DNA of 64,000 bases from Thermodesulfobacteriota bacterium. Lineage in GTDB: Bacteria; Desulfobacterota; Desulfobacteria; Desulfobacterales; JARGFK01. The stretch covers positions 7,865 to 71,864 of the forward strand of contig JBFLWU010000008.1 in the NCBI GenBank assembly GCA_040757625.1. Reading direction: 5' to 3'. Position numbers and translations under genes: made by a program. The number at the start of each line of letters is the position of its first letter. The stretch's first letter is position 1. The notes beneath the pieces were generated by a model. That model ran no database searches, was not told the DNA's origin, and saw only the letters and a program-made list of their open reading frames with translations. Of this stretch, positions 29,516 to 50,982 are shown piece after piece.

Positions 29516-29530
29516 TATGAATCCCCTTTA

Positions 29531-30437: not shown

Positions 30438-30470
30438 TGACGGCCTTAAACGCAGTTTTTAAAAAGCCTG

Positions 30471-31859: not shown

Positions 31860-31924
31860 TTTTAATGTTATATTTAAAAAATATTACGCCGGTGAACAGA
31901 TCATTATATGGCCGGCCGGCCCGA

Positions 31925-34721: not shown

Positions 34722-36107
34722 TTAATACGTCAATTTCCCCTGGGCCAATTCCACCTTAAATCGTTTCATCTGGTTCCATACGGTCACACGGGAGACCCCC
34801 AAAAGCTCTGCTGCCAGGGATTGATTGCCGTTGGATTTCTCAAGCGCTTCTATCAGACGACGTTTTTTCATTTCACCCCTGTTCAGGGGGATTTTCTTGT
34901 CCTTTTTCTCCGATTTATTCTCCCCATAAATATTGGGCGGCAGGTGATACGGTTGAATGACCGAATCCTGACAGGTAACAAAGGCGTATTCAAAGGTGCT
35001 TCTTAACTCCCGCACGTTTCCCGGCCAGGAATATGCCATCAATATCCGCATGGCATCATTGCTGATCCCGTTGATTTTTTTATCGGTTTTAAGGCGGATT
35101 CTTCTGAAAAACGCCTCGGCCAAGATGGGGATATCTTCAATCCTCGCCCGCAAGGGGGGAACATGGATCGGTATCACATTGATCCGGTAAAAGAGATCTT
35201 CCCTGAAAAGTCCTTGCTCTACCTGCTCCTTCAGGTCTTTGTTGGTGGCGGATATAATCCGGACATTAACATGAATGGGTTGATTATCCCCCACGCGCTC
35301 GACAACTTTTTCTTCCAGAACCCGCAGCAGTTTCACCTGGGTTAAAACAGGCAAATCGCCGATCTCATCAAGAAAAATGCTCCCTTTCTGAGCAGCCTCA
35401 AATCTTCCGGCACGATTGCGAATGGCACCGGTATAGGCACCTTTGACATGCCCGAAGAGTTCGCTCTCGAGCAGCGCTTCATTTAATGACGCACAATTGA
35501 CTTTCACGTATGGATTGGAGTGGCGCTGACTGTTATCATGAATCGCTTTGGCCACCAGTTCCTTGCCGGTGCCGCTTTCACCAAAAATAATCACGGGCGC
35601 ATCCGATTGAGCCGCGTTGGCTATCAAATCAAACACCTGTTGCATGGGCCCGGAAACCCCCAGGATACCGTGAAAGCCGTTTTCCGATTGAAGTTCGCGG
35701 CGAAACGCCGCAATCTGATTGTCCTTTTCGACGATTTCGGTGATGTCCGTAACCGTTTCCACTGCGCCCATCACTTCGCCGGCGGAATCATACAAAAGAG
35801 AGGCATTCTTTAAAACGTGAATCAACCGGCCGCTTTTTTGAACAAACGTGCATCTGCGCATGTCCATGGAACCGGTCTTAAATAAAACACACCAGTGCTC
35901 CCCCTTATCGCGACGGGCAAATTCGAATATATTACAATTCAATATGGAGCAGGGCTTTCCCAGCATCTCATCTTTTGAATAACCGGTTATTCTTTCAATG
36001 GCCTTATTGACCGAGACAATGCATCCGCCCTTATCAACGATCATGACTCCGTCCTGGATCGTATCCACCACTTTCTTCCAATAGAGGTTCAACTCCTGTT
36101 CAAACAT
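34722..36107 (-). CDS. sigma-54-dependent transcriptional activator (PAS - AAA+ - Fis HTH)
   Basis: Cys-containing PAS, GESGTGKE, GAYTGA, C-terminal HTH AAELLGVSRVTVWNQMKRF. Divergent from the Hdr-like operon. Confidence 0.9.
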   Translation of the reverse strand: MFEQELNLYWKKVVDTIQDGVMIVDKGGCIVSVNKAIERITGYSKDEMLGKPCSILNCNIFEFARRDKGEHWCVLFKTGSMDMRRCTFVQKSGRLIHVLKNASLLYDSAGEVMGAVETVTDITEIVEKDNQIAAFRRELQSENGFHGILGVSGPMQQVFDLIANAAQSDAPVIIFGESGTGKELVAKAIHDNSQRHSNPYVKVNCASLNEALLESELFGHVKGAYTGAIRNRAGRFEAAQKGSIFLDEIGDLPVLTQVKLLRVLEEKVVERVGDNQPIHVNVRIISATNKDLKEQVEQGLFREDLFYRINVIPIHVPPLRARIEDIPILAEAFFRRIRLKTDKKINGISNDAMRILMAYSWPGNVRELRSTFEYAFVTCQDSVIQPYHLPPNIYGENKSEKKDKKIPLNRGEMKKRRLIEALEKSNGNQSLAAELLGVSRVTVWNQMKRFKVELAQGKLTY

Positions 36108-36382: not shown

Positions 36383-36398
36383 TGGCATCCGCTTTGCA
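36383..36398 (+). promoter_or_regulatory. sigma-54 promoter for the Hdr-like operon
   Basis: TGGCATCCGCTTTGCA is a near-consensus TGGCAC-N5-TTGCA. It sits about 47 nt upstream of the first start codon and has a divergent sigma-54 activator gene. Confidence 0.7.
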
Positions 36399-36696: not shown

Positions 36697-36804
36697 ACCT
36701 TGCTCTAAACGAGAGGGTACCCCGGCCATGAATAAAACAAGTAAGCAACAGACAGCAAAAGGGCTCATCGCGTTCTTTTTCATGCAGAAATCAGGAGGGT
36801 GTTC

Positions 36805-39800
36805 ATGTCCATAAAAATTGGGTTCTTTATTTGTCACTGCGGCATCAACATCGCTTATAGAGTACGGGTGGAGGAGGTGGCGGCCTTCGCCCGCAAACTC
36901 CCCAACGTGGTGGTTGCCAGGGACTACAAGTTCATGTGTTCGGACCCCGGCCAGGAACTGATCGAAAAAGATATTCGGGAATACGGTCTGAACCGGGTCG
37001 TGGTGGCCTCCTGCTCACCCCGACTCCATGAGAAAACCTTTCGCGGGGCCTGCGAACGCGCCGGTCTCAACCCCTATATGTTCCAGATGGCCTCTGTTCG
37101 CGAGCAAGTCTCCTGGGTCACGCCGGATGAAGAGGAGGCCACCCGTAAGGCAAAAACCCTTGCGGCCGCCGCCATTAACCGGGTCAACTACCATCACAGC
37201 CTCGAAACCCGTGAAGTCGATGTGCATCCGGACGTCTTGGTGGTGGGGGGCGGCATCGCCGGCATGCAGGCGGCCCTGGACGTCGGCAATTCCGGTCACA
37301 AGGTTTACCTGGTTGAAAAACAGACAACCATCGGCGGTCATATGCTGCAGTTCGACAAAACCTTCCCGACCCTTGACTGCGCTGCCTGTATCGGCACGCC
37401 CAAAATGGTCGAAGTGGCCCAAAATTCTAATATTGAACTCTTCTCCTACAGTGAGGTCAAGGAGGTGTCCGGGTACATCGGCAATTATACGGTAAAGATT
37501 CACCGCAAACCTCGGTACGTCAAGGAGAGCGTCTGTACGGGCTGCGGAGAATGCGCCGGTGTCTGCCCGGTATCTCTCCCCAGTGAATGGGATGAAGCAC
37601 TGGGAAACCGAAAGGCCGTTTACCGCTCTTTTCCCCAGGCCGTCCCCATCACCTTCTGCATCGACAAAAAGGACCGGGCCCCCTGTGTGACGACCTGCCC
37701 GGCGGGAATCAACGTTCAGGGGTATGTCCAGCTGATCGGTCAGGGTAAATACAAGGAGGCTGTCGCGCTGATCATGGAAAAGCTTCCTCTGCCGGGGGTG
37801 TTGGGACGCGTGTGTCCGCACCCCTGTGAAAAACAGTGTCGCCGCCAGGAAGCCGATGAAGCCGTCGCCATCCGGGAATTAAAGCGTTTCGCCGCCGACC
37901 AGGTTGGCCCGGCGGATTTACCGCCGCCTGAAATCGAGGACCGCAGCGAAAAAGTGGCAGTGGTGGGCTCCGGGCCGGCCGGCTTGACGGCCGCCTATTA
38001 CCTGCGGTTGAAAGGTTATGCGGTAACGATTTTCGAGGCCCTTCCAAAGCCGGGCGGCATGCTCCGCGTCGGTATTCCCGATTACCGCCTGCCCCCGGAA
38101 GTACTCGACAAGGAGATTGGCTATATTCTCCGGCTGGGGATTTCCATTGAAACGAACAAACGTTTGGGGCGGGATTTTACCCTGGAAAGTCTCAAATCCG
38201 AGGGGTTCAGCGCCATATTTCTGGCAATCGGTGCCCACAAGAGTCTGAATATCAATATTCCGGGTGAAAACGACTTCAAGGGCGTTTTCAATGCCGTGGA
38301 CTTCTTGAGGGAAATTAACCTGGGAGGCCGTAACCGTCCAGGCAAGGATGTTGCCGTTATCGGCGGCGGCAACGTCGCCATTGACGCCGCTCGCATCGCC
38401 AAGCGCCTGGGCTGCGATTCCGTGACGGTGGTTTACCGTCGCACCCGCAATGAAATGCCGGCCTATCCCGAGGAAATTAGAGACGCCCTGGCGGAAGGAA
38501 TCCAAATTCACTACCTGACAGCGCCGGTGGGGATCGTTGGTGATAACGGCGTCGTCTCCGGCCTGAAATGCATCAAAACCGAACTGGGGGCGCCCGACGC
38601 CAGTGGACGCCGCCGTCCGGTGCCGGTGGAAGGTTCGGAGTTCTTGATCGAATGTGACGCGATTATCGGCGCCACCGGGCAGCGGATTGACGGTGACTGG
38701 ATCGCGGCGGAGAAAGGTCCGGATTTAACCCGGCGGGGCACGATTGCGGTAGATCCGCACACCATGCAAACATCCCTTGCGCACATATTTGCTGCCGGCG
38801 ATGCGGTCACCGGTCCGGCATCGGTGGTTGAAGCCGTTGCCGCCGGGCGCAAAGCGGTGGAAGCCATTGATCGGTATCTCAATGATGAAAATCTGGAGGA
38901 ATACGCTCAAATATTGGCGGCCGAGGAGGCTCCGGGTCAGGACTGGCAGGAAATACCCGAAAACACATACAGACGCAAACGGTCACAGCCCGCCCACCTG
39001 GCGGCGGCACATAGATCCACCAGTTTTGACGAGGTAAACGGCGGCTTTTCGGAAGAGCAGGCCCGCCAGGAGGCCGATCGGTGCCTGAATTGCGGCATCT
39101 GTTCCGAATGCATGGAATGTGTCAGGGTCTGCGAAGCCAATGCCATTGACCACAGCATGAAAGCCGAAGAAATCGAAGTCAAAGTGGGCAGCATCATTGT
39201 CGCAACAGGGTATGACCTCATGGACCCCACCCCCCTGAAACAATTCGGGTATGGCTCCTATCCCAACGTGTTTACCAGCCTTGAGTTCGAACGCCTCAGC
39301 AATGCCACCGGACCGACCGGGGGCAAAATTCTGATCCGGGATGAAAACGGCGAATTTACCAAGTCCCCTGCCAGCGTGGCGATTCTGCACTGCATCGGCA
39401 GCCGCGATGTGAATTATCACGAATACTGCTCCCGTGTCTGCTGCATGTATGCATTGAAATATTCCCATCTGATCAAGGAAAAGGTGGGTCACGATACGGC
39501 CGTCTACGATTTCTATATCGATCAGCGCTGTTACGGCAAAGGCTATGAAGAGTTTTATAAAAGATGCCAGGAGGAAGGCACCACCTTCATCAGGGGGAAG
39601 GTCGCTGAAATTACAGACCGCGCCGTCAAACCCGAAGAAGCGGGCAAGCTCATCGCCGTTGCCGAAGACACCCTTCTGGGGAGTGTTCTGCGCGTGCCGG
39701 TGGACATGGTGGTCCTGTGTTCCGCCATCGAAGCACGCCGGGATGCCAATGAGGTCGGTCGCATATTCGGAGTCAACCTGGGTGCGGACGGATTTTTTCT

Positions 39801-40215
39801 GGAGGAGCACCCCAAGCTGGGCCCGTTGAACACCGCCACGGACGGCGTGTTTCTAGCGGGCGCCTGCCAGTCTCCCAAAGACATTCCGGATACCGTCGCC
39901 CAGGCCTCGGGGGCTGCTGCCAAGGCCCTTTCCCTGGCAACCCGAGGGGTCGTGCAGATACCGTCGACCATCTCCTGGATCGATCCGGATGTCTGCGCCG
40001 GCTGTCAGACCTGTATCGGTTTGTGTCCGTATACGGCGATTGAGTTTGATGAGCGCCGGAGGATTTCGGTGGTCAATGAAGCGCTGTGCAAAGGCTGCGG
40101 CAGTTGCGCCGGATTTTGTCCCAGCGGCGCCGCCCAGGTAAAGCATTTCAACAAGCGCCAGATATTTGCGGAGTTTGACGGCATTATCGATGCCTTACAC
40201 TCGGTGGGAATGTAG
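36805..40215 (+). CDS. HdrA-like flavoprotein with inserted GltD/NfnB-like NAD(P)H module (HdrL-type fusion, about 1136 aa)
   Basis: HdrA N-domain (FFICHCGINIA...ASCSPRLHE), FAD fold VVGGGIAGMQAALD, CTGCGECAGVCP. GltD-type CPAGINVQGY / VCPHPCEKQCRR, VAVVGSGPAGLTAA, VAVIGGGNVAIDAAR. The HdrA fold then resumes (TSLEFERL, HCIGSRD, CSRVCCMYALK) and ends with 2x CxxCxxCxxxCP. Start at ATG 36805 behind aggaggg. Confidence 0.87.
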   Translation: MSIKIGFFICHCGINIAYRVRVEEVAAFARKLPNVVVARDYKFMCSDPGQELIEKDIREYGLNRVVVASCSPRLHEKTFRGACERAGLNPYMFQMASVREQVSWVTPDEEEATRKAKTLAAAAINRVNYHHSLETREVDVHPDVLVVGGGIAGMQAALDVGNSGHKVYLVEKQTTIGGHMLQFDKTFPTLDCAACIGTPKMVEVAQNSNIELFSYSEVKEVSGYIGNYTVKIHRKPRYVKESVCTGCGECAGVCPVSLPSEWDEALGNRKAVYRSFPQAVPITFCIDKKDRAPCVTTCPAGINVQGYVQLIGQGKYKEAVALIMEKLPLPGVLGRVCPHPCEKQCRRQEADEAVAIRELKRFAADQVGPADLPPPEIEDRSEKVAVVGSGPAGLTAAYYLRLKGYAVTIFEALPKPGGMLRVGIPDYRLPPEVLDKEIGYILRLGISIETNKRLGRDFTLESLKSEGFSAIFLAIGAHKSLNINIPGENDFKGVFNAVDFLREINLGGRNRPGKDVAVIGGGNVAIDAARIAKRLGCDSVTVVYRRTRNEMPAYPEEIRDALAEGIQIHYLTAPVGIVGDNGVVSGLKCIKTELGAPDASGRRRPVPVEGSEFLIECDAIIGATGQRIDGDWIAAEKGPDLTRRGTIAVDPHTMQTSLAHIFAAGDAVTGPASVVEAVAAGRKAVEAIDRYLNDENLEEYAQILAAEEAPGQDWQEIPENTYRRKRSQPAHLAAAHRSTSFDEVNGGFSEEQARQEADRCLNCGICSECMECVRVCEANAIDHSMKAEEIEVKVGSIIVATGYDLMDPTPLKQFGYGSYPNVFTSLEFERLSNATGPTGGKILIRDENGEFTKSPASVAILHCIGSRDVNYHEYCSRVCCMYALKYSHLIKEKVGHDTAVYDFYIDQRCYGKGYEEFYKRCQEEGTTFIRGKVAEITDRAVKPEEAGKLIAVAEDTLLGSVLRVPVDMVVLCSAIEARRDANEVGRIFGVNLGADGFFLEEHPKLGPLNTATDGVFLAGACQSPKDIPDTVAQASGAAAKALSLATRGVVQIPSTISWIDPDVCAGCQTCIGLCPYTAIEFDERRRISVVNEALCKGCGSCAGFCPSGAAQVKHFNKRQIFAEFDGIIDALHSVGM

Positions 40216-40393
40216 CCGGGCCAGGGGCCGGCATTCAGGGTCGGGTGCCAGGCAAAACAGATCTTGAAAACTAAAAGTCCTCATAATTTTGAAATTCGCT
40301 GAAACGATTATGACTCAAAAAGGAACGACATGAAAGCGTTTGCCCCTGAATACCAATTACCGGAAACGAGTTTAAAATATTTTGGAGGCAACG

Positions 40394-40816
40394 ATGGAAG
40401 ATTTTGAACCGAGTATCATCGCCTTTGTCTGTAACTGGTGCACCTACACTGCAGCCGACCTGGCCGGAACGTCGCGCTTGACATATCCCAAAAACGTCCG
40501 GTTGATTCGGGTCATGTGCACGGGGATGGTCGATCCCCAATATGTCATCAAAGCCTTTCTGGAAGGCGCCGACGGCGTGCTTGTCAGCGGCTGCCATCCG
40601 GGCGATTGCCATTATATCAATGGAAACTTTAAAGCCCGGCGGCGGATCAAACTGTTAAAGGAAATCCTGCCGCAATTCGGATTTGAACCCGAAAGACTCC
40701 GGTTGACCTGGATCGGCGCCAGTGACGGCATCCAGTTCGCCGAAATCATGCAGCAACTGGTATCGCAAATCAAAAACCTGGGACCGAACCAGGCCAAACT
40801 GAAAATGGTGATTTAA
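40394..40816 (+). CDS. MvhD-like (methyl-viologen-reducing hydrogenase delta subunit family) [2Fe-2S] protein
   Basis: IIAFVCNWCTYTAADLAG...VMCTGMVDP...VSGCHPGDCHY hallmark. Start ATG 40394 behind ggagg. Confidence 0.87.
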   Translation: MEDFEPSIIAFVCNWCTYTAADLAGTSRLTYPKNVRLIRVMCTGMVDPQYVIKAFLEGADGVLVSGCHPGDCHYINGNFKARRRIKLLKEILPQFGFEPERLRLTWIGASDGIQFAEIMQQLVSQIKNLGPNQAKLKMVI

Positions 40817-40885: not shown

Positions 40886-42031
40886 ATGGCTACAACGTGG
40901 AAGTTTGAAACTAAAGATCAGGCGCTTTTGGAATCGCTGCAGGAACTGTTACGGTCCGTTCTGGAAATGGAAGATATCAGCGCCGTTCTAGTCCCCCGGC
41001 GTCTTCCCATGAAAAATATGGTGATGCCGACGCTGGTGAGCGACCCGGAAAAGCTCGACGGGATCGATCCGCTCTCCCCGGCATTTCCCATGAACGCAGC
41101 CAAGATCGTATCCAGGCTCACCCGCAAATCCATGGGGGGCAAAGTGGTGGCGGTTTTGCGTCCCTGTGAAATCCGGGCATTCATCGAATTGGTCAAACTC
41201 AAGCAGGGGCAAACGGATGAACTCGTCATCATGGCCATCGACTGCCTGGGCGCCTACCGGAATTCGGATTATTTTAAATTTGTCGAAAAAGATTTCGAAG
41301 CAGCAGCCCGGCGCTTTTATCAGAGCGTGCTTTCCGGCCGCGGCGCCGCCGTGGACAACGTCGATCTGGCAGAGGCCTGCAAGGTCTGTGAATATCCGGT
41401 TGCAACCCATGCCGATATTCTGATCGGCCTTTACGGCGTTCCCACCGATGACCACTTCATCGTTCAGGGGCTGACCCCTGCGGGTGAAGCGGTTTTGAAT
41501 CCGCTCAGCCTTGCCAAGGCACAGGAGCCGCCGGAGCGCCAAAAAACAGTTGACGAGCTGATCGCCGCCAGAACGGCCTATCGCGATCAAATGTTTGCGC
41601 GTACCGCCGAAGCCACCGCCAGCCTGGAAAAATTGACGACCTATCTGGCCAATTGCGTCAACTGTTACAACTGCCGGGTCGCCTGTCCGGTCTGCTACTG
41701 CAAGGAATGCGTATTCGTCACGGATGTGTTCAACCATGAACCGGCTCAATATCTGAGGTGGGCGGCCCGCAAGGGCGTCATCAAAATGCCCACTGATACC
41801 GTTTTTTATCATATTACCCGGCTGGCCCATATGAGTACGGCCTGCGTCGGTTGCGGCCAGTGCTCCAACGCCTGTCCCAACGACATCCCGGTAATGGAGC
41901 TCTTTCGCACCGTGGCGGCGCACACGCAGAGGGGATTCAACTACGAGGCCGGACGCAGCCTGGAAGAAAAACCGCCCCTGTCTGAATTTCGTGAAAATGA
42001 ATTCAACGAGGTGGTAGGGATGTCCGCATAA
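40886..42031 (+). CDS. FrhB/FdhB-like iron-sulfur protein (2x[4Fe-4S] plus FrhB-type domains)
   Basis: 381 aa. VLRPCEIRAF...AIDCLG, CVNCYNCRVACPVCYC, CVGCGQCSNACP. The family call is from the overall pattern only. Confidence 0.6.
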   Translation: MATTWKFETKDQALLESLQELLRSVLEMEDISAVLVPRRLPMKNMVMPTLVSDPEKLDGIDPLSPAFPMNAAKIVSRLTRKSMGGKVVAVLRPCEIRAFIELVKLKQGQTDELVIMAIDCLGAYRNSDYFKFVEKDFEAAARRFYQSVLSGRGAAVDNVDLAEACKVCEYPVATHADILIGLYGVPTDDHFIVQGLTPAGEAVLNPLSLAKAQEPPERQKTVDELIAARTAYRDQMFARTAEATASLEKLTTYLANCVNCYNCRVACPVCYCKECVFVTDVFNHEPAQYLRWAARKGVIKMPTDTVFYHITRLAHMSTACVGCGQCSNACPNDIPVMELFRTVAAHTQRGFNYEAGRSLEEKPPLSEFRENEFNEVVGMSA

Positions 42032-42051
42032 AAACTGGAGAGGTGTTAACG

Positions 42052-43359
42052 ATGACAACTGCAGCAGTCAAACTCGGAAAGAAGAAAGCGAGCCTATTTA
42101 TCGATAAAGTCAAAGAGCTTCTGCCGGAAGGCGGAAATTTGAACCTGTGCCTCACCTGCGGCGCGTGCACTTCCGGCTGCCCGGCGTCGGGACTGGAGGA
42201 GATGGATCCACGCAAGTTTCTGCGCATGGCGGCGCTGGGATTGGACGAAGAGATCACTGCAACGCCCTGGGTCTGGATGTGTACCATGTGTAAGCGCTGT
42301 ATTTACGTTTGCCCGATGCAGATCGATATCCCCCAGTTGGTGTATCACGCCCGCAACGCCTGGCCGCGTGAAACCCGACCCAAGGGTATCCTGGGCTCCT
42401 GTGATATGGCCCTGCGCAATGACAGCTGCAGCGCCATGGGGGCTTCCCCCGAGGATTTCCAGTTCGTGGTGGAAGACGTACTGGAGGAATACCGCGAAGC
42501 CCAGCCTGAATTTAAAGACATGCAGGCGCCCATCGACAAGCAGGGGGCCTATTTCTTTGTGAATCAAAACTCCCGCGAGCCGGTAACCGAACCGGACGAG
42601 ATGGTGCCCCTCTGGAAAATCCTGCATCTGGCGGGCGCCGACTGGACTTACGGCAGCAAGGGCTGGGGGGGAGAAAATTACTGCATGTTCCTTGCTGATG
42701 ACCAGGCCTGGGAGCACATCGCCCGGACCGCCGCCAAGCAGGCCGATGTACTCGGCTGCAAGGTCTTTCTCAACACCGAGTGAGGGCACATTACCTTTGC
42801 AGTCCGGGCCGGACTGAAAAAATTCAATATCGAACATAAGTTTGAGGTTGCCAGCATCTACCAATACTACGCCAAATGGGTCCGGGAGGGAAAATTGAAA
42901 ATCAACGCCGACTGGAACAAGGATTTGAAGATCAAGTTTACCGTTCAGGATCCCTGCCAGATCGTGCGCAAAAGCTTCGGAGATCCGGTGGCGGATGATT
43001 TGCGTTTTGTGGTCAAAACGTTGGTGGGCGAAGAAAATTTCATCGAGATGCATCCCAACAAAAGCAACAATTACTGCTGCGGCGGCGGCGGCGGCTTTCT
43101 GCAGTCCGGTTATGTCGAGGCCCGCCGTAAATACGGCGAGCTGAAACTCAACCAGATCTTGGCCACCCGGGCGGATTACTGCATTACGGCCTGCCACAAC
43201 TGTCACGCCCAGATTCACGATTTGGCCGAACACACGAACGCAAAGTATCATACGGTTCACTTGTGGACCCTGATCTGCCTGTCCCTGGGAATTCTGGGGG
43301 AAAACGAACGCGAATATCTGGGGCCGGATTTGAAAGAGGTGGCCGTTTATGGCGCTTAA
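42052..43359 (+). CDS. HdrD/DsrK/GlpC-like CCG-domain Fe-S oxidoreductase, predicted selenoprotein (UGA at 42781-42783 read as Sec)
   Basis: Track ORFs 42043-42783 and 42895-43359 are in the same frame, and the 111 nt between them contain no stop. Joined product: CLTCGACTSGCP, CTMCKRCIYVCP, then KVFLNTE-U-GH...FTVQDPC...YCCGGGGG...CHNCHAQ, which is one intact CCG domain. Confidence 0.75.
42800..42816 (+). promoter_or_regulatory. candidate bacterial SECIS hairpin
   Basis: cagtcc-gggcc-ggactg stem-loop starting 17 nt after the in-frame UGA. Confidence 0.5.
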
Positions 43360-43496: not shown

Positions 43497-46400
43497 ATGA
43501 AAAAAAAGGTGGGCACGGCTTTGGTGGTGGGTGCAGGAATCAGCGGGATCCGGGCGGCTCTGGATTTGGCTGAAAATGGATACGGGGTGAAACTGATCGA
43601 CCGATCCCCCCATCTGGGCGGAATTCTGACCCAGCTCGACTACCAGTTTCCCACGAACCGCTGCGGGATGTGCAAAATGCTGCCGCTGGTGGACCGGGAT
43701 GCGTCCTCGCAATACTGCCTGCGCAAGGGGCTCTTCCATGAAAACATTGAAATTTTAACGTCCACCGAACTTGTCTCGGTGGCGGGCGAATCGGGGAATT
43801 ACCGCGTAAAACTCCGTCAGAAGCCCAGCTGGGTGGACCCGGAACTGTGCGTCGGCTGCGGCGCCTGCGTACCGGTCTGTCCGGTGGAAGTTCCGGATGC
43901 GTTTAATGCCGCCTTGGCACGGCGCAAGGCCATCTACTTGCCGGTACCCCACGCCATCCCCAATCCTTTCGCCATCGACGTGACGGCCTGTACGCGGTGC
44001 GGCGCCTGTGAAGCGGTCTGCCCCACCGGCGCCATTCGACTGTCCGACCAGGAAAGAAAAATGTTTCGCATTCTCGTGGTGGACGATGAACTGATTGTGC
44101 GCGATTCGCTCAAGGCCTGGCTGGATGATGAAGAAGGGTTTATGGTGGATACGGCCGAATCCGGACCGGACGCCTTGGACAAGTTAACCAAGAACTCGTA
44201 TCAATTAATGCTGCTGGATATCAAGATGCCGGAAATGGACGGCGTGGAGGTTCTCCGAAAAACCAAAGATATCCTGCCCGATATCCAAGTGGTGATGATG
44301 ACCGCCTACGCTACCGTCGAGACGTCCGTCGAAGCCATGAAGATCGGTGCGCTGGATTACCTGATTAAACCCTTCGACCCGGAAACACTCGTACCTAAAA
44401 TTCTGCAGCTTTATGAAGATCTTGAGACTTCCCGGGCCAGGGAGGTGGAAGTGGGGGCGCTGGTCCTCTGCGGCGGCAGCAGCTATTATAATCCGGCGGA
44501 TGGAAAAAACACCTTCGGCTATAAGAACCTTCCCGGGGTTATCACCAGCCTGGAGTTTGAACGCCTCATCAGCGGCACCGGCCCATGTCAGGGCCGCCTG
44601 ACGCGTCCCGAAGACGGCAAACCCATCCGTAAAATCGCCTGGATTCAGTGTGTCGGATCCCGGGACCTGCAAAGCAGCGCCGATTTTTGTTCAAATGTCT
44701 GCTGCATGATCGCCGTCAAAGAGGCCCTGCTGGCCAGGGAAAAATTCGGCGAAGCAGTGGAAACCACCGTCTTTTATATGGACATGCGCACCTTCGGCAA
44801 ATCGTATCAGCGCTATCGCAACGCGGCTGAAAAGACTCACGGCGTTCACTTCGAACGGGGCCGGGTGCACTCGGTCATCAGGGACGGCACCACCGATCAA
44901 AACGGGGAAGATCTGTCCGTCCGCTACGCGGACGCCGGCGGTGCCATCCGGGATGAACGTTTTGATATGGTGGTCCTGGCCGTCGGCCAGCGTCCGGTGG
45001 CGGGGACGATTGAATTGTCGAAACAGCTGGATATTCCCCTGAATCCCTGGGGATATTGTCAGACCGAACCATTTTCCATGACAAAAACCGGAAAAGACGG
45101 AATCGTCGTCGGCGGCGCTTATTCCGGCCTCAAAGACATCAGCGAATCCGTGATTCAGGCATCGGCCGCGGCCTTATCCGCATCCCGGGCGATTCACAGT
45201 GTCGGCGGCAGTCTGGCATTGGAAACCGAGCCCGCCCCTGAACAGGCCGGTCTGGCGAGGGAATTACCCCGGACACTGGTAGCTATCTGTACCTGCGGCG
45301 ATGCGCTTTCGGAATTTGCCAGATCTCTGGAATTGTCGGCACGACTTCAAAGCGATCCGGCCGTAAGCGCAGTGGAATTTGTTGATCGAATCTGTACCGC
45401 CGCCGGGTGGGAAACCTTGCTGCAGGTTGTGGAAAAGCATCGGCCCAACCGGATTCTGATCGGCGCCTGCCTGCCCTGCGTCTATGCACCGAAAATCAAG
45501 GCGCTCGCCGGCCGCGCCGGCCTGAACCCGTCGCTGACGGACGTGGTGGATATCCGCTCCCCGGCATTTGAAACCCTCGATCCTGAAAAACCGGCCGACA
45601 CGAAGCATATTATCGCCATGATGGCAAGCGCCCTCTTGACCGGTTTGGCCAGGCTGAAACGGGTGGACCCCTCACCCGTAGCCACCATCAAGGTCCAGCA
45701 GCAGGCCCTGATTGTCGGCGGAGGCATTGCCGGAATGACGGCGGCGCTGGCAATTGCTGATCATGGATTTCATGTCGACCTGATCGAAAAGGAAGACCGG
45801 CCGGGCGGAAATCTGACCTGGCTCCGGGGCACCCTGGAGGGTCAGGCTGTCAAACCCTTATTGGATGGGACCCTTGCGAAGGTTGAAAAACACCCGCTGA
45901 TCGAAGTTCGCACCCAAACCCATGTGGTAGGCGCTTATGGTCAAGTGGGTAATTTTTTCACAACCATCGAAAACCAGGACGGTCGGACCGATACTCTCCG
46001 GCACGGCGTCATTATTCTGGCCACCGGCGGCGCCGAAGCGATCCCCAGCGCCTATCATTACGGGGAGAGCGACGTGATTATCACCCAGAAGGAACTTGAA
46101 CAAAAACTGGACCGAAACGAAATCGATCCTTTGAAGCTGGAATCGGTGGTCATGATCCAGTGTGTCGAATCGCGCGAAGAACCGCGCAACTATTGCAGCC
46201 GAATCTGCTGTTCATCAGCCTTGAAACACGCCCTGGCGTTAAAGCAGATAAACCCTGAAATCGAAATATTCATCTATTATCGCGACATGATGTCCTATGG
46301 ATTCATGGAGACCTATTTTACCCGCGCCCGACAGGCGGGGGTAATCTTCATCCAGTATGATCCCATGCAAAAACCGGAGGTCATCCCGGCAACCGAGGCT

Positions 46401-46970
46401 GCCGGCGGCAGCCCTGTCAGCGTCAAAGGCTATGATCCCATCCTGGGGCGTCCCGTGGAAATCGAGGCCGATCTGGTGGTCCTTTCCATGGGGGTGGTGC
46501 CCGGCCTGCCGGCGGACTTGGCGGCGTCCCTGGGAACTTGTCTGGATCAAGACGGTTTTTTTCAGGAGGCTGAGGCCAAATGGCGACCGGTCGACGCCAT
46601 CAAGGAAGGCATATTCGCCTGCGGGCTGGCGCACTCGCCCCGTTCCATCGCCGAGGCGGTTACCACCGCTGAAGCGGCGGCCCAGCGCACCCTTCGGATT
46701 CTGTCGCAAAAATTTCTACCGGCCGGAAAAATTGTGGCCGGGGTCCATCATGCCCTGTGCAGCCTGTGCCAACGCTGTATCGATGCCTGCCCCTACGGCG
46801 CTCGCACCCTGGATGAGGACGTGGAAAAAGTCTTGGTAAACCCCGTGATGTGCCAGGGCTGCGGTTCCTGCGCCGCTGTTTGTCCCAACAGCGCATCGTT
46901 TTTGGAGGGATTTCATGAAGAACAGATGTTTGAGACGATCGACGCCGCCTTGGAGGGAACTTTCGGATAG
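43497..46970 (+). CDS. tandem HdrA-like flavoprotein with embedded response-regulator receiver domain (1157 aa)
   Basis: FAD fold VVGAGISGIRAALD, 2x CxxCxxCxxxCP, REC at aa about 189-306 (RILVVDDE, LMLLDIKMPEMDG, VVMMTAY, DYLIKPF), then TSLEFERL / IQCVGSRD / CSNVCCM. A second HdrA module follows (ICTCG, GACLPC, IVGGGIAGMTAALA, QCVESRE, CSRICCSSALK, terminal 2x[4Fe-4S]). Confidence 0.87.
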   Translation: MKKKVGTALVVGAGISGIRAALDLAENGYGVKLIDRSPHLGGILTQLDYQFPTNRCGMCKMLPLVDRDASSQYCLRKGLFHENIEILTSTELVSVAGESGNYRVKLRQKPSWVDPELCVGCGACVPVCPVEVPDAFNAALARRKAIYLPVPHAIPNPFAIDVTACTRCGACEAVCPTGAIRLSDQERKMFRILVVDDELIVRDSLKAWLDDEEGFMVDTAESGPDALDKLTKNSYQLMLLDIKMPEMDGVEVLRKTKDILPDIQVVMMTAYATVETSVEAMKIGALDYLIKPFDPETLVPKILQLYEDLETSRAREVEVGALVLCGGSSYYNPADGKNTFGYKNLPGVITSLEFERLISGTGPCQGRLTRPEDGKPIRKIAWIQCVGSRDLQSSADFCSNVCCMIAVKEALLAREKFGEAVETTVFYMDMRTFGKSYQRYRNAAEKTHGVHFERGRVHSVIRDGTTDQNGEDLSVRYADAGGAIRDERFDMVVLAVGQRPVAGTIELSKQLDIPLNPWGYCQTEPFSMTKTGKDGIVVGGAYSGLKDISESVIQASAAALSASRAIHSVGGSLALETEPAPEQAGLARELPRTLVAICTCGDALSEFARSLELSARLQSDPAVSAVEFVDRICTAAGWETLLQVVEKHRPNRILIGACLPCVYAPKIKALAGRAGLNPSLTDVVDIRSPAFETLDPEKPADTKHIIAMMASALLTGLARLKRVDPSPVATIKVQQQALIVGGGIAGMTAALAIADHGFHVDLIEKEDRPGGNLTWLRGTLEGQAVKPLLDGTLAKVEKHPLIEVRTQTHVVGAYGQVGNFFTTIENQDGRTDTLRHGVIILATGGAEAIPSAYHYGESDVIITQKELEQKLDRNEIDPLKLESVVMIQCVESREEPRNYCSRICCSSALKHALALKQINPEIEIFIYYRDMMSYGFMETYFTRARQAGVIFIQYDPMQKPEVIPATEAAGGSPVSVKGYDPILGRPVEIEADLVVLSMGVVPGLPADLAASLGTCLDQDGFFQEAEAKWRPVDAIKEGIFACGLAHSPRSIAEAVTTAEAAAQRTLRILSQKFLPAGKIVAGVHHALCSLCQRCIDACPYGARTLDEDVEKVLVNPVMCQGCGSCAAVCPNSASFLEGFHEEQMFETIDAALEGTFG

Positions 46971-47102: not shown

Positions 47103-47167
47103 ATATGGAGCGTTGAAATAGCTTCCAATAAAAATTGCGACATTTTATTCATCACTGAGGATTGACC

Positions 47168-47740
47168 ATGAATCAACCGGAGCTTAAGCAAAAAGAAAAC
47201 ACACCGAATTCTCTGCCGGATCCGCTGGTATCGGTCCAGAATATGATCAAAGCCTGTATCCAGTGCGGTACCTGTACGGGTTCCTGTCCCAATGCCTTTG
47301 CCATGGATCCGACCCCGCGCCAGTTGTGGCGCAGGGTCCTGCTGGGGCAAACGGACGAAATATTCAGGAGCCAGACATTCACGCTGTGTTCAGCCTGTTA
47401 TTATTGCACCCTGCGGTGCCCCCGGGGCCTGCCGTTGACCGAGGCCATGGGTGCGCTCAAGCAGATCGCCGTCCGCGATGACCTGAAACGATACAAAAAG
47501 AGTATTCGGTTCTACAAAAGCTTTCTCAGCAGCGTTCGCCGCCATGGTCGCGTGCATGAGATGGAGTTTATGACTCTTTATTTCCTGTCCATGAAAAGTC
47601 CGTTTCTGCCGCTTAAGTTTACCCCCCTTGGACTGCGCCTGATGGGTAAAAGAAAAGTCGGCGTCGAAATCCCGTCCCGGAAACCGAATCCTTTGGACGC
47701 CATTTTCCGCAAGGTCGAAGAGATGGAGGAGCGCTCATGA
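47168..47740 (+). CDS. hdrC: heterodisulfide reductase subunit C-like (2x[4Fe-4S])
   Basis: CIQCGTCTGSCP and CSACYYCTLRCP with HdrC-type spacing. ATG 47168 behind gagga. Confidence 0.85.
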   Translation: MNQPELKQKENTPNSLPDPLVSVQNMIKACIQCGTCTGSCPNAFAMDPTPRQLWRRVLLGQTDEIFRSQTFTLCSACYYCTLRCPRGLPLTEAMGALKQIAVRDDLKRYKKSIRFYKSFLSSVRRHGRVHEMEFMTLYFLSMKSPFLPLKFTPLGLRLMGKRKVGVEIPSRKPNPLDAIFRKVEEMEERS

Positions 47741-48666
47741 AATATCTCTACTATCCTGGTTGTTCACTGGAAGGAACCGCCCTGGAGTACAATGAATCCA
47801 CCAAGGCATTCATGCGGGCCGTGGGCGCGGAACTGATCGAACTGGATGACTGGACCTGCTGCGGCGCCACCGCCGTCGAATCGGTCAGCCGCCTGTTGGC
47901 CCTGGCGCTGCCCGCCAGAAATATCGCGTTGGCGGAAAAAATGGATGATTCCAAAGATATCCTCGTCCCGTGCAGCGCCTGCTACCTGAACCTGAAAAAA
48001 GTAGAAGAAAAAACCCGCAAGGAACCCGAACTTCAAAAAAAACTGAACGAAATTTTAAGCATAGAACAACTGCGACTGCAAGGCAAAGTCCGGGTCCGGC
48101 ATCTTCTGGACGTGGTTGCCAATGACCTGGATCCCACGGTCCTTCGGAGCCGGGTTCAACAATCCTTTTCCGGATTTAAGATTGCGCCGTATTACGGCTG
48201 TCAGTGCCTTCGCCCTTACCGGGTTTTTGACGATCCGGAAGACCCGCGTTCCATGGAACCGCTGATTGAAGCAACCGGGGCGGAAGTATTTTCCTGGGAC
48301 ATGGGAGGCAGGTGCTGCGGCGCCTCCCATATGAATACCAAAATGGAGGTGGGGCTCAGCCTGGTAGCCGCCATATTGAAACAGGCCAAAGGGGCTGATG
48401 CCGTCATTACGGTCTGTCCCATGTGCCAGATGAACCTGGAGGCATATCAGCGCAGGGCTGCAAAACAATTAAATGAAGATCTGGACATCACCATACTCTA
48501 TCTGCCGCAGCTCTTGGGACTGGCCATTGGCTTGTCGGAAAAGGACCTGCGCCTCGACTTGAACCTGTCACTAAAAAAGCAGTTTCGTGAAAAGCTGAAC
48601 GATAGACCTGTTCTTCCGGAAAACGCAGCCGAAAGCAGCCGGCAGACCGTTTTAACCAACGCCTGA
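47737..48666 (+). CDS. hdrB: heterodisulfide reductase subunit B-like (two CCG domains)
   Basis: YYPGCSLEG...WTCCGAT...PCSACYLN and YYGCQCLRP...RCCGASH...VCPMCQMN. ATGA overlap with hdrC. Confidence 0.88.
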   Translation: MKYLYYPGCSLEGTALEYNESTKAFMRAVGAELIELDDWTCCGATAVESVSRLLALALPARNIALAEKMDDSKDILVPCSACYLNLKKVEEKTRKEPELQKKLNEILSIEQLRLQGKVRVRHLLDVVANDLDPTVLRSRVQQSFSGFKIAPYYGCQCLRPYRVFDDPEDPRSMEPLIEATGAEVFSWDMGGRCCGASHMNTKMEVGLSLVAAILKQAKGADAVITVCPMCQMNLEAYQRRAAKQLNEDLDITILYLPQLLGLAIGLSEKDLRLDLNLSLKKQFREKLNDRPVLPENAAESSRQTVLTNA

Positions 48667-48693: not shown

Positions 48694-50982
48694 ATGAAAG
48701 GTGCTTTCACGTCGTTTAATAATTTGCGCCACAGCCTGGGATTTAAGCTGATTTTAACCGTCGGCGTCACCCTGCTGCTGTCCATCGGGATCTGGGCTTT
48801 CTTTAACATCAAGTACCAGCAGGCGAAGCTCATATATCATATCGTTGCCGATGCCGACCGGTTGAGCCACACCATCATCCTTGGCACGCACGATGCCATG
48901 CTGCACGACTCAAGAGGCGATATCGCCCGGATCATCGAAAACATCGGTCGGCAAAAAGAACTTCGCGCCTTACGAATCTACAATAAAGACGGGGTGGTAA
49001 AGTATTCGAGCCGGCCGGCCGAGATTGACCAAGCCGTTGATATCCAGGCAAGAGTCTGTTCGGTATGTCATCTCTCGAGTCCGCCGCTGTCTCAGGTTGA
49101 TTTGGCAAAACGGGCCTGGTTTACCACCACGCCGAAAGGGTCGCGCCAGATGGAGATCGTTACGCCGATCCGGAACGAACCCCGGTGCACCTCCGGTCCT
49201 TGCCATATCCATTCGGGTGAAAAAAAATTTTTAGGCGCATTGAACTTAATTTTTTCCCTTGAGCAGACTGAAAAAGAGATCCTCCATCTTGAAAAAGGAA
49301 TCATTGCGCTGGCGGGTTTCGTTTTTCTGGTAACCTCCACGATTATTTTTGTTTTCGTGATGAGATTCGTCAATCTCCCCATCAAGAAGCTGATCATCGG
49401 CACCCACCGGATTGCCAAAGGAAATTATCTCGGCCAGGTGGACATTTCCGGGCCAGACGAAATGGGGCAATTGGCAGCCGCCATAAACAAAATGGGTCAA
49501 GAAATCTGGGAAAATCAGGCGGAGCTCAACCGTCAACGAAACGAATACCAATCGCTCTTTGACCATGTCCCCTGCCTGATTACCGTGCAGGACAAAGACT
49601 ACCGTCTGATCGGGGTTAACCGCGAATTTTCTGAAAAGTTCAGGCCGACCCTGGGCGAATACTGCTACCAGGTCTACAAGGGACGCAGCAGTAAGTGCAG
49701 TGAGTGTCCGGTCGAACAGACCTTTAAAGACGGAATGTCACATTATGCGGAAGAAACCGGTTCAGATAAGGATGGAACGGTGACCCACTGGATCGTAAAA
49801 ACAGCGCCCATTCGCAATATCAACGGAGAGATTGTCGCCGCCATGGAAATGAGCGTGGACATCACACACAGCCGGATGCTTGAAGAAAAACTGGAAGAGT
49901 CGGAAAGGAAATATCATGAAATTTTCAATAATATGCCCAATCCAGCCTTTGTTCTGGATGGGCATAAGCTGCAAATTTTAGACTGCAACCAGCGTGTAAA
50001 AAATATTTACGGCTTCAGCAGGGAAGAGTTGATTCAAACCTCATTTCTCGATCTCTTTAAGGATAAAGAAATGGGAGCGAATACCTTAAAAATCAGAAAC
50101 TCCAGCGTACTGCATCAGGCGACGCACCTGAGAAAGACCGGTGAGACCATTTATGTGGATATCTGGATCTCGCCGCTGATATACGAAGGACAATTGGTAT
50201 TTCTGGTGACCACCAGCGATATCACCCAGCGGCTTGAAACCGAACAGCAGCTCATCCAGGCCGGTAAAATGGCCACCCTTGGCGAAATGGCCACCGGTGT
50301 GGCCCATGAGCTGAACCAGCCCCTTTCGGTTATCAAAACCGCCAGCAGCTTTTGCATCAAAAAGATTCAAAAAAACGAAGAAATAGCCGATAAAACCCTC
50401 TTCACCATGCTGAATAAAATAGACGGCAATGTCGACCGGGCTACCAAAATTATCACGCATATGCGACAATTCGCCAGAAAGACTGATATGAACCTGGTGA
50501 AAGTGCAGATCAACGACATCCTGCAGCGGGCCTTCGAGATTTTCAGCCAGCAGTTGAAGCTGAGAGGAATTGAAGTCGCCTGGCATTTGGCGCCGGATCT
50601 ACCGCTCGTCACAGGTGACCCCGACCGGCTGGAGCAGGTATTTATCAACCTGATCTTAAACGCCAGAGAGGCCATGGAGGAAAAATCAGCCTCCATGGCC
50701 GCAGAAAGCATTGAGAAAAGAATAACGCTTAAAACAGCCGCAAATGGGGAAAAGGTTACCGCTGAAGTCTGTGACACGGGAATCGGAATCCCCAAGGCGG
50801 TTGCGGACAAAATTTTCGAACCGTTCTTCACCACCAAAGAAGTGGGGAAAGGGACCGGGCTGGGGCTCTCTATTAGTTATGGTATCGTTAAAGACTGCGG
50901 CGGAACCATTCGGGTCAAATCAGAAAGCGGCCAGGGAGCGTGTTTTATCATAACGTTTCCTCTGCCAAACAAGGCGCAATGA
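48694..50982 (+). CDS. sensor histidine kinase: TM - periplasmic heme-c-type domain - TM - HAMP - PAS(Cys4) - PAS - HisKA - HATPase
   Basis: Two TM helices flank about 165 aa carrying CSVCH (CxxCH) and CTSGPCH (CX4CH). HAMP follows, then PAS with VPCLITVQD...CYQVY...CSECP. H-box VAHELNQPLS, then NLILNAREAM, DTGIGIP, GTGLGLS. Confidence 0.88.
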   Translation: MKGAFTSFNNLRHSLGFKLILTVGVTLLLSIGIWAFFNIKYQQAKLIYHIVADADRLSHTIILGTHDAMLHDSRGDIARIIENIGRQKELRALRIYNKDGVVKYSSRPAEIDQAVDIQARVCSVCHLSSPPLSQVDLAKRAWFTTTPKGSRQMEIVTPIRNEPRCTSGPCHIHSGEKKFLGALNLIFSLEQTEKEILHLEKGIIALAGFVFLVTSTIIFVFVMRFVNLPIKKLIIGTHRIAKGNYLGQVDISGPDEMGQLAAAINKMGQEIWENQAELNRQRNEYQSLFDHVPCLITVQDKDYRLIGVNREFSEKFRPTLGEYCYQVYKGRSSKCSECPVEQTFKDGMSHYAEETGSDKDGTVTHWIVKTAPIRNINGEIVAAMEMSVDITHSRMLEEKLEESERKYHEIFNNMPNPAFVLDGHKLQILDCNQRVKNIYGFSREELIQTSFLDLFKDKEMGANTLKIRNSSVLHQATHLRKTGETIYVDIWISPLIYEGQLVFLVTTSDITQRLETEQQLIQAGKMATLGEMATGVAHELNQPLSVIKTASSFCIKKIQKNEEIADKTLFTMLNKIDGNVDRATKIITHMRQFARKTDMNLVKVQINDILQRAFEIFSQQLKLRGIEVAWHLAPDLPLVTGDPDRLEQVFINLILNAREAMEEKSASMAAESIEKRITLKTAANGEKVTAEVCDTGIGIPKAVADKIFEPFFTTKEVGKGTGLGLSISYGIVKDCGGTIRVKSESGQGACFIITFPLPNKAQ

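Follow-up and report, generated by a model that had tools for sequence, protein, structure and literature searches.

A further GlpC-like selenoprotein gene: a soluble HdrD-like Fe-S protein with a probable selenocysteine codon in a Thermodesulfobacteriota bacterium

A selenoprotein family named "Fe-S oxidoreductase (GlpC)-like" was reportedly recognized by Kryukov & Gladyshev in 2004. Zhang et al. 2006 (PMC1794560) describe "Fe-S oxidoreductase (GlpC)-like" selenoproteins in Deltaproteobacteria, a recent review lists the family as PTHR43551 with the Sec motif UGH (PMC13188914), and hdrD4 of Desulfobacterium autotrophicum HRM2 is a related selenoprotein (PMC2702500). An earlier note on the DNA analyzed here had named GlpC/HdrD-like Fe-S oxidoreductases as a deltaproteobacterial selenoprotein family, and the passages of these three sources that treat the family (the first, "UGH" in the second, hdrD4 in the third) agree. 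The family has thus been known since 2004–2006, and the gene reported here, found in a 64-kb stretch of DNA ("the window"), is a further member rather than a new class of element.

The window protein carries the U-G-H motif given for the family in the review, as LNTE-U-GH, and shares with the family the di-ferredoxin plus CCG architecture and the linkage to hdrA and mvhD (frhD) described in the relevant sections of PMC1794560, as well as a Desulfobacterota host and a bacterial SECIS element (bSECIS) straight after the UGA. No essential difference was found; the window member comes from the metagenome-assembled genome (MAG) of an uncultured Thermodesulfobacteriota bacterium. Locus VIII of D. 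autotrophicum resembles the window order hdrL-mvhD-fdhB-like-hdrD-hdrA-hdrC-hdrB (Table 1). MvhD and both HdrA-like proteins of the window cluster are Cys forms, whereas several of these are also selenoproteins in S. fumaroxidans and D. autotrophicum. Assignment to GlpC proper was rejected, with scores of 42.5 and 35.7 bits against NCBIfam cut-offs of 278 and 280 and no glpAB nearby; "GlpC" is merely a COG-derived label.

The hdrL-like gene is a probable operon partner of hdrD(Sec). The order hdrL-mvhD-381aa-hdrD(Sec) was found again in seven loci (L019, L045, L055, L063, L067, L092, and L104), and the order RR-hdrA-hdrC-hdrB-hdrD(Sec) in five (L035, L082, L084, L086, and L090).

Table 1. Predicted features of the hdrD(Sec) locus, in window positions
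Feature	Coordinates	Strand	Basis
Predicted selenoprotein gene, soluble HdrD-like (HdrC+HdrB fusion) Fe-S protein	42052-43359	+	Translation, Pfam, 120 Cys homologues
UGA, probable selenocysteine codon 244	42781-42783	+	Cys column in homologues; TGA in at least 120 genomes; 110 TGA vs 8 TGY metagenome copies among the matches listed
Two CxxCxxCxxxC motifs, C33-C43 and C77-C87, HdrC-like, two predicted cubane [4Fe-4S]	42148-42312	+	Pfam Fer4, PDB HdrC match
T-E-U-G-H motif, codons 242-246	42775-42789	+	Alignment with T/GECGH of DsrK, HmcF, TmcB
CCG motif C302-X39-CC(342,343)-X37-C381-X2-C384, predicted non-cubane [4Fe-4S] site	42955-43203	+	PF02754, conservation, Foldseek
bSECIS upper stem, 7 bp, GGC apical loop	42800-42816	+	Folding, covariation, third-position conservation, absence from Cys copies
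Extended SECIS helix	42796-42820	+	Covarying pair 42799/42817 and U-A pairs with conserved A-run
hdrL-like: HdrA-type flavoprotein with GltD-type NAD(P)H-binding module, 1138 aa	36799-40215	+	Pfam, NCBIfam
mvhD (FlpD), 144 aa, Cys form	40382-40816	+	PF02662, E 2.8e-55
381-aa 4Fe-4S protein, weak FrhB/FdhB-like similarity, directly upstream of hdrD(Sec)	40886-42031	+	MEW6671201.1; syntenic, seven loci
Receiver-domain-HdrA fusion, downstream	43497-46970	+	Pfam, NCBIfam
hdrC, downstream	47162-47740	+	Pfam, NCBIfam
hdrB, two CCG domains, downstream	47737-48666	+	Pfam, NCBIfam

The hdrD-like gene, with ATG 42052 as its likely start, comprises 435 codons interrupted by a single internal stop, the TGA at codon 244. 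As the earlier note had read them, the ORFs 42043-42783 and 42895-43359 lie in a common frame, the 111 nt past the TGA (42784-42894) are free of stops and translate as GHITFAVRAGLKKFNIEHKF..., and the product sizes of about 48 and 27 kDa agree with computed masses of 48.9 kDa for the full-length protein and 27.2 kDa for one ended at the TGA. Fifteen of the 34 other genes in the window terminate in TGA, indicating a standard genetic code, and a scan of the window for further genes split by TGA left the hdrD-like gene as the only credible case. No window-wide enrichment of the sigma-54 promoter pattern was detected.

If the TGA were a true stop, the locus would yield two proteins, a di-ferredoxin of 243 aa and a CCG-domain protein of ∼154 aa translated from its own start. 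Many public assemblies annotate just such a split, their gene callers often producing fragments that end in ...NTE and C-terminal fragments that begin 3–13 residues later. A database look-up of truncated forms and of an X-containing version of the window protein returned no record. Against this reading, which we judge very improbable, the 37 codons that separate the TGA from the next in-frame start (TTG 42895) contain no ATG or GTG and are conserved at the protein level with third-position variation. In the orthologue alignment codon-periodic conservation runs across the TGA with the frame unchanged, and the N- and C-terminal halves are adjacent and in frame across it in those oriented genome loci whose flanks are long enough. 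Homologues with Cys at this position are continuous proteins of about 435 aa, not the pairs of separate genes that the earlier note had named as grounds for abandoning its proposal, and the hairpin described below is confined to TGA copies.

Alignment with Cys-containing orthologues, which the earlier note had suggested as a check, revealed a Cys/Sec pair at column 244: the residue is an invariant Cys (LNTE-C-GH) in all of the best 120 full-length homologues (66–77% identity) and in 37/37 distant ones. At least 120 species-level Desulfobacterota genomes, from Desulfobacterales, Desulfobulbales and relatives, have TGA at codon 244 and keep the two halves in one frame. Cultured carriers of the gene include Desulfoluna spongiiphila (L036/L046), Desulfoprunum benzoelyticum (L018) and Desulfocicer vacuolatum (L069). 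The genome scan queried TGA only, so that the codon is always TGA there by construction. The metagenome scan was codon-neutral, accepting TGA, TGC or TGT at codon 244, and among the matches listed 110 of 118 copies had TGA and 8 had TGY. In some genomes the Sec gene and a Cys paralogue stand side by side in tandem. P0183 was considered as a distant Sec subfamily but belongs to the present family, its assembly being frameshifted. This distribution bears on the suspicion that the TGA is a pseudogene mutation or assembly error, a TGC/TGT Cys codon having recently turned into a nonsense codon in this MAG. The source is indeed a metagenome-assembled genome and TGA is one base from TGC or TGT, but the same codon recurs in those other genomes and metagenome copies, the sequence flanking it is under purifying selection, and the SECIS hairpin of the window is intact, leaving almost no probability for such an error.

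A stem-loop had been noted 17 nt past the UGA, and CAGTCCG-GGC-CGGACTG indeed begins at the 17th nucleotide. According to the review (PMC13188914, including its Fig. 2 legend), bSECIS elements have an apical loop of 3–9 nt with G in the first two loop positions, an upper stem of 4–16 bp, a UGA-to-loop distance of 16–37 nt, and an MFE ≤ -7.5 kcal/mol. The window hairpin, with a 7-bp stem, a GGC loop (or G-GGC-C with a covarying closing pair), a UGA-to-loop distance of 22–23 nt, and an MFE of -14.1 kcal/mol for the 48-nt segment counted from the UGA, lies within all four published constraints, compared by rule rather than with the bSECISearch program. Rfam at gathering thresholds gave no match in the window. 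As a single sequence the fold only modestly beats shuffles (z = -2.0, with 9/200 shuffles equally stable); it is the comparative evidence that decides that the hairpin exceeds chance.

Across 110 distinct sequences, the stem covaries at pair 26-30 (GC 54, UA 46, GU 7) and pair 21-35 (AU 88, GU 15, UA 5, GC 2), paired cells reach 88.6% compared with 31–50% when the partners are slid, and the covariation score was matched by 0/500 shuffles. Below the upper stem, pair 19-37 (42799/42817) is U-A in 85 and G-C in 12 orthologues, the window itself having a G/A mismatch; pair 16-40 is UA in 110 sequences, 17-39 is UA in 85, and 18-38 is mostly unpaired. Third codon positions are conserved at 0.81–1.00 within the hairpin and at 0.33–0.65 at most positions outside it. 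The presence of the stem tracks the codon: among the metagenome matches listed, all seven pairs are complete in 103/110 TGA copies and six in the remaining 7, whereas none of the eight Cys copies has a complete stem and only 2–5 of the pairs form. Mean MFE is -11.2 kcal/mol in TGA copies versus -2.9 kcal/mol in Cys copies, and of the tandem Sec and Cys paralogues in locus L121 only the Sec copy has an intact hairpin (-13.1 versus -4.6 kcal/mol). In a second subfamily, which reads LPE-U-GH, the stem differs (CAACCCG/CGGGUUG) while its offset is unchanged.

The invariant Cys/Sec column, the at least 120 TGA-bearing genomes, and the covarying hairpin confined to TGA copies sustain the earlier prediction, and the in-frame UGA is very probably a genuine selenocysteine codon of a soluble heterodisulfide-reductase-like Fe-S protein. 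Reading through the UGA by near-cognate Cys or Trp insertion, or inserting Sec only conditionally with a Cys protein that works under selenium limitation, would also yield a full-length product. No selA, selB, selD or tRNA-Sec lies within the 64-kb window, where ARAGORN found no tRNA of any kind, and the tandem Cys paralogues of some genomes suggest that selenium supply matters. A conserved, covarying hairpin of bSECIS geometry, however, has no known near-cognate role in the parts of the review that concern such elements (PMC13188914), and the deltaproteobacterial lineage, from which the decoding capacity of the host is argued, is described in the pertinent sections of PMC1794560 and PMC2702500 as selenoprotein-rich and carrying selABCD; we give this alternative only a small chance. 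Nearly all of these selenoprotein identifications come from bioinformatics, as the 2026 review states in its treatment of them (PMC13188914), and no report of experimental selenium incorporation for the GlpC-like family was found in the portions of the literature available. By the comparative evidence, selenium would actually be inserted at codon 244.

Pfam places a ferredoxin dicluster at residues 30–92 and a single CCG domain (PF02754, E 4.9e-12) at residues 297–388. PDB HdrC chains match the N-terminus (E 1.9e-14), the cubane-motif cysteines are invariant, the five cysteines of the CCG motif are invariant in the close family, and C302 and C343 are kept in 37/37 distant relatives. The earlier note had put the UGA exactly at the first Cys of the CCG domain, which proved incorrect: that cysteine is C302, in the "DPC" that the note itself had placed downstream. 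U244 is instead an additional conserved Cys position, the sixth, which precedes the CCG motif by 58 residues and lies in a degenerate N-terminal lobe, where by Cys inventory the cluster ligands have been lost except for residue 244. Compared alone with protein families, including the Pfam CCG model, the N-lobe had no match even at E ≤ 10, and hhalign of this lobe against the C-lobe or the window HdrB gave only a weak "NYC" match and a low-confidence alignment. By secondary-structure register, taken from the AF2 model (pLDDT 82.5) and the literature, U244 would occupy the fourth Cys position (first of CxxC) of a CCG repeat without a cluster. It is probably not a cluster ligand.

Foldseek matched the model to EtfD and to whole HdrB chains. 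Methanogen HdrB/HdrC (PDB 5ODC, 7BKB, 8RVU) and HdrD resemble the window protein in its HdrC-like N-terminus, and HdrB also in its two-lobed fold (TMt 0.6–0.66 over about 300 columns). HdrB and HdrD differ in having two CCG motifs and two non-cubane clusters; assignment to canonical HdrB/HdrD was rejected because two complete CX(31-39)CCX(35-36)CXXC motifs are required and only the C-terminal one is present. The best structural match was EtfD of Mycobacterium smegmatis (9ojn; E 7.1e-10, TMq 0.65, 449 aligned columns), which differs in being a membrane-anchored chain of 742 residues with 16% identity and no selenoprotein.

The best NCBIfam models for the window protein were HmcF, TmcB and DsrK (aligned residues 72–407), but orthology to DsrK, HmcF or TmcB was rejected, the scores of 113, 161 and 151 bits comparing with equivalog cut-offs of 400, 750 and 735. 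The likeness lies in two cubane-cluster motifs, one complete CCG motif, and an extra conserved Cys followed by Gly-His at column 244. In the alignment of distant relatives TE-U-GH aligns with GECGH of P0198 and P0245, both above the NCBIfam cut-off for DsrK, and with TECGH of P0233, above that for HmcF. The window protein is nevertheless only 27–33% identical to these proteins, its neighbors are of soluble HdrA/MvhD type with no membrane cytochrome b or NrfD-type partner adjacent, its final CCG cysteine, C384, is present at a position that is Asp in many DsrK, and the predicted catalytic Cys is replaced by Sec. Judged from sequence, it is a separate soluble branch beside DsrK, HmcF and TmcB.

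The T/GECGH motif is described in PMC10861901, and in the cryo-EM structure of DsrK its cysteine, Cys329, is non-ligating and is positioned with the substrate cysteine on one side and the lone non-cubane cluster on the other (PMC10861901; bioRxiv 10.64898/2026.08.25.746951). Cys329 is the counterpart of U244 in our alignment. The earlier proposal that a selenolate sits at or beside the catalytic cluster thus finds support in homology with the GECGH/TECGH Cys of DsrK and HmcF, short of direct proof; by this homology Sec244 would adjoin the CCG cluster, a placement taken from the preprint structure of a 27–32% identical relative. A link between the UGH Sec and the DsrK cysteine appears to be absent from the available text of PMC10861901, bioRxiv 10.64898/2026.08.25.746951, and the selenoprotein reviews.

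We consider it highly probable that 42052-43359 encodes one 48.9-kDa cytoplasmic HdrD-type Fe-S protein with UGA 244 decoded as Sec. In this product an HdrC-like di-ferredoxin and a two-lobed HdrB-like domain would form one chain. By analogy with the mechanism established in bacteria, SelB carrying Sec-tRNA(Sec) would be recruited to the ribosome at the UGA by the hairpin at 42800-42816, which lies within the coding part of the mRNA. For the position of residue 244 relative to the cluster, its chemistry and its substrate, we infer that the selenolate may act as a nucleophile or sulfur relay, attacking a disulfide or polysulfide to give a selenenyl-sulfide or perselenide-type adduct, which the adjoining non-cubane cluster would reduce in one-electron steps. 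The electrons for this reduction would come from MvhD and the HdrA-like flavoproteins encoded alongside and would pass through the two cubane clusters, NAD(P)H being a likely donor via the HdrL module.

Whether Sec rather than Cys is the predominant natural variant in the soluble HdrA/MvhD-linked branch, as 110/118 environmental copies among those listed would have it, we regard as an even proposition. If true, nature has already run the Cys-to-Sec substitution for the DsrK/HmcF/TmcB/HdrD-like single-cluster class, and such a substitution would speak for a redox-active nucleophile that forms selenenyl-sulfide or perselenide intermediates, and against a cluster ligand. The alignment of the UGH Sec with the T/GECGH Cys offers independent evolutionary support for a catalytic nucleophile beside a lone non-cubane cluster. 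For annotation, gene callers routinely report the gene as two pieces, a "ferredoxin" of 243 aa and a CCG fragment, and with the Sec codon recognized many genomes of sulfate reducers would regain a catalytic subunit of 435 aa.

The earlier note had read an in-frame UGA in hdrD(Sec), a gene for an HdrD-like Fe-S protein, as selenocysteine, and the sequence facts behind it all proved correct. ORF analysis of the window placed 42043–42783 and 42895–43359 in one common frame, and translation of 42052–43359, with the ATG at 42052 as probable start, gave 435 codons with a single internal stop. The 111 nt 3' of the TGA contain no stop and no ATG or GTG, TTG at 42895 being the next in-frame start candidate. 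The hairpin described 17 nt past the UGA was located, and the computed masses of 48.9 kDa (full-length) and 27.2 kDa (truncated) agree with the expected ∼48 and 27 kDa. Because TGA terminates 15 of the 34 other window genes, the genetic code here is standard.

A search with the joined protein returned 2,621 homologues, of which the best 120 are full-length Desulfobacterota proteins (about 435 aa, 66–77% identity). Column 244 is Cys in all 120 (motif LNTE-C-GH), giving the Cys/Sec pair that alignment with Cys-containing orthologues had been expected to reveal. When genomes were scanned with a back-translated pattern that required TGA at codon 244, at least 120 species-level genomes matched; the hosts listed all belong to Desulfobacterales, Desulfobulbales, and relatives, and include isolates of Desulfoluna, Desulfoprunum, Desulfocicer, and Desulfobacter latus. 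At every TGA locus with sufficient flank, the N-terminal 243 and C-terminal ∼190 codons lie in one frame around the TGA, so orthologues do not end there as two separate genes. The same pattern applied to metagenome contigs, with codon 244 as TGA, TGC, or TGT, gave 110 TGA and 8 TGY among 118 usable copies listed; among these matches TGA is thus the commoner form. Codon periodicity of conservation persists across the TGA (positions 1 and 2 fixed, position 3 free), and translation appears to carry on beyond it.

Many 50%-identity cluster representatives in databases are fragments with a C-terminal end exactly at ...NTE (P0123, P0137, P0146, P0155, P0165, P0177, P0187, P0196, P0199, and P0250), and partner C-terminal fragments begin a few residues past these ends, so the Sec gene is systematically split by automatic gene calling.

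In the window alone, the hairpin has just a modest folding advantage over shuffled sequence (−14.1 kcal/mol, z = −2.0; 9/200 shuffles fold equally well). Comparison across sequences makes a decisive case for selenocysteine over chance. Third codon positions are 0.81–1.00 conserved within the hairpin, compared with 0.33–0.65 for most in flanking codons, which points to RNA-level constraint. Across 110 distinct sequences, helix pairing reached 88.6% of cells, compared with 31–50% when the 3' partners were slid by 1–3 columns, and the observed covariation score was matched by 0/500 column shuffles. Several helix pairs show substitutions on both sides; counts are G-C 54, U-A 46, and G-U 7 for the closing pair, U-A 85 and G-C 12 for pair 19–37, and A-U 88, G-U 15, U-A 5, and G-C 2 for pair 21–35. 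A distant subfamily (…LLLPE-U-GHAYYATRSGL) has another stem, CAACCCG-GUC-CGGGUUG, at the equal 17-nt offset, adding two further double changes. The hairpin geometry (7-bp upper stem, loop G-GGC-C with a covarying N1-N2 pair, UGA-loop distance 22–23 nt) agrees with all four published bSECIS constraints, including MFE ≤ −7.5 kcal/mol (PMC13188914, Fig. 2 legend).

Among the metagenome copies listed, all 7 stem pairs form in 103 of the 110 TGA copies and 6 of them in each of the remaining 7, whereas the 8 Cys copies have just 2–5; mean MFE is −11.2 and −2.9 kcal/mol, respectively, and the hairpin appears confined to TGA copies. Tandem paralogues at locus L121 (Ca. Magnetomoraceae bacterium gMMP-15, CBDFNU010000095.1) offer a natural control for the hairpin–TGA link: their peptides are almost identical (SVRAGL vs SVRAGI), and the stem is intact in the Sec copy and ruined by synonymous changes in the Cys copy only (−13.1 vs −4.6 kcal/mol). 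This Cys paralogue may be a backup under selenium limitation. The window hairpin is accordingly a predicted SECIS element and, given the Cys/Sec pair, the at least 120 TGA genomes, and the covarying, TGA-specific hairpin, codon 244 very probably encodes selenocysteine.

Coordinates of the features (window positions unless a locus or residues are named)
Feature	Position	Strand	Remark
Aconitase	1394–4192		adjoins haem cluster
Haem-biosynthesis cluster	4357–9780	−	
Aldehyde:ferredoxin oxidoreductase	13663–15849	−	adjoins HTH/PBP-like regulator and ABC transporter
PBP-permease-ATPase ABC transporter and HTH/PBP-like regulator	16217–19496	+	
Anaerobic CO dehydrogenase catalytic subunit	23642–25672	−	
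PAS-sigma-54 activator	34722–36107	−	divergent
Sigma-54-type −24/−12 match	36383–36398	+	one mismatch
hdrL	36799–40215		HdrA with GltD-type NAD(P)H module
mvhD	40382–40816		
Fe-S protein, 381 aa	40886–42031		
hdrD(Sec)	42052–43359	+	3' of 381-aa Fe-S protein gene
TGA, codon 244	42781–42783	+	from translation
Palindrome CAGTCCG-GGC-CGGACTG	42800–42816	+	begins 17th nt past UGA
Receiver-domain-HdrA fusion, 1157 aa	43497–46970	+	
hdrC, hdrB			3' of the fusion, before the kinases
Two histidine kinases	48694–50982; 50940–52148		after hdrB
HdrC-like di-ferredoxin	residues 30–92		Pfam
CCG domain, single	residues 297–388		Pfam
Tandem hdrD-like paralogues	L121 3924–5246; 5701–7023		Sec (TGA); Cys (TGT)
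Distant LPE-U-GHAY subfamily	L124 343–1093; L125 43–1064		TGA at same column

The protein matches PDB sequences of HdrC chains (E 1.9e-14) and, weakly, HdrB chains. The top NCBIfam models, HmcF (161 bits), TmcB (151 bits), and DsrK (113 bits), each give one unbroken alignment over residues 72–407, at scores far under their equivalog cut-offs. For P0001, the nearest homologue with Cys, the AF2 model (pLDDT 82.5, pTM 0.84) gave structural matches both to EtfD of M. smegmatis (9ojn; E 7.1e-10, TMq 0.65) and to HdrB chains over their whole length (TMt 0.6–0.66). Together with the Pfam domains, these matches argue for a soluble HdrD-type HdrC/HdrB fusion. GlpC proper, at only 36–43 bits in NCBIfam, was rejected.

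Conserved C33, C36, C39, and C43 with C77, C80, C83, and C87 form two cubane-cluster motifs, the sole intact CCG motif is C302-X39-C342C343-X37-C381-X2-C384, and position 244 is a further conserved Cys site. The UGA had been taken for the first Cys of the CCG domain, which is instead C302 (DPC); U244 lies 58 residues upstream, in an N-terminal lobe with no Pfam family match even at E ≤ 10. In the AF2 model, strand 238–241, residue 244, and helix 245–257 parallel strand 376–379, C381, and helix 382–395, so U244 would correspond to the fourth Cys, where CxxC begins, in a degenerate CCG repeat, whose first-Cys equivalent falls within an invariant N-S-R (residues 173–175).

Relatives of 27–38% identity have Cys at column 244 in 37/37 cases and His at column 246 in 31/37, with the motif [T/G/S/P]-E-C-G-H; P0198 and P0245 (DsrK) and P0233 (HmcF) pass curated cut-offs. 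In A. fulgidus DsrK, Cys329 lies within a conserved GECGH motif (T/GECGH in HmcF and TmcB) and was described as the sole surviving ligand of an absent second non-cubane cluster (PMC10861901). A cryo-EM preprint on DsrK, which does not mention selenocysteine, finds Cys329 persulfidated and not a cluster ligand, with the substrate cysteine of DsrC on one side of it and the lone non-cubane cluster on the other, and proposes His331 as proton relay (bioRxiv 10.64898/2026.08.25.746951). U244 is the probable counterpart of this cysteine and would lie near the cluster without ligating it. The proposal that a selenolate is placed at the catalytic cluster or beside it thus holds by homology, while the reason offered for it, replacement of the first-Cys ligand, falls away.

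The order hdrL-mvhD-381-aa-hdrD(Sec) is repeated in seven loci, and other loci have hdrA-hdrC-hdrB-hdrD(Sec), hdrA-mvhD-hdrD(Sec), or hdrD(Sec)-x-hdrA-mvhD; these orders match D. autotrophicum locus VIII (PMC2702500) and the glpC-hdrA-frhD clusters that Zhang et al. described in 2006 (PMC1794560). From this neighbourhood and likeness we infer that the protein is the thiol/disulfide-active component of a soluble complex of the HdrA/MvhD type, possibly with a link to NAD(P)H. The 64-kb window holds no Sec-machinery genes, no tRNA, and no further genes split by TGA. Source-record proteins run from MEW6671167 to MEW6671205, with exactly one accession, MEW6671202.1, between the two flanking genes and no truncated forms of hdrD(Sec) in the public record, consistent with the locus already being handled there as a single CDS.

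The 1157-aa HdrA-like flavoprotein, named 'response regulator' by NCBI, carries two ferredoxin motifs and a receiver domain (PF00072, residues 192–301, E 1.6e-29). Its long relatives (56–63% identity) adjoin Sec-hdrD in loci L035, L063, L067, L084, and L104, near full-length in the first four, and it could be a phosphorylation-controlled Hdr enzyme. The sigma-54-type match, TGGCATCCGCTTTGCA, lies in the 690-nt gap 5' of hdrL and adjoins the PAS-sigma-54 activator gene; the window-wide count of this pattern is not above chance.

Elsewhere in the window, 13663–19496 resembles a pairing of a tungstoenzyme with an uptake system for tungstate or molybdate. The CO dehydrogenase gene opens a metallocluster maturation neighbourhood (23642–32827, −) with two CooC/ParA-like NTPases, NifU-N-like and NifX-like (FeMo-cofactor-binding domain) proteins, a sigma-54 activator, and an Mrp/NUBPL-type NTPase. 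The haem cluster encodes an amine-oxidase-type protoporphyrinogen-oxidase-like flavoprotein, ferrochelatase, a radical-SAM protein, and uroporphyrinogen decarboxylase.

That GlpC/HdrD-like oxidoreductases are reported deltaproteobacterial selenoproteins is borne out by the literature: a 2006 table of 25 bacterial selenoprotein families includes 'Fe-S oxidoreductase (GlpC)', represented in Syntrophobacter, Desulfotalea, and Desulfovibrio (PMC1794560), hdrD4 of D. autotrophicum carries a selenoprotein annotation (PMC2702500), and a 2026 review lists an 'Fe-S oxidoreductase-like protein, PTHR43551, motif UGH' (PMC13188914). The window gene appears to be a further member of this known family, to which our analysis adds that the selenocysteine would be the equivalent of DsrK Cys329 and that, among the matches listed, the Sec form predominates.
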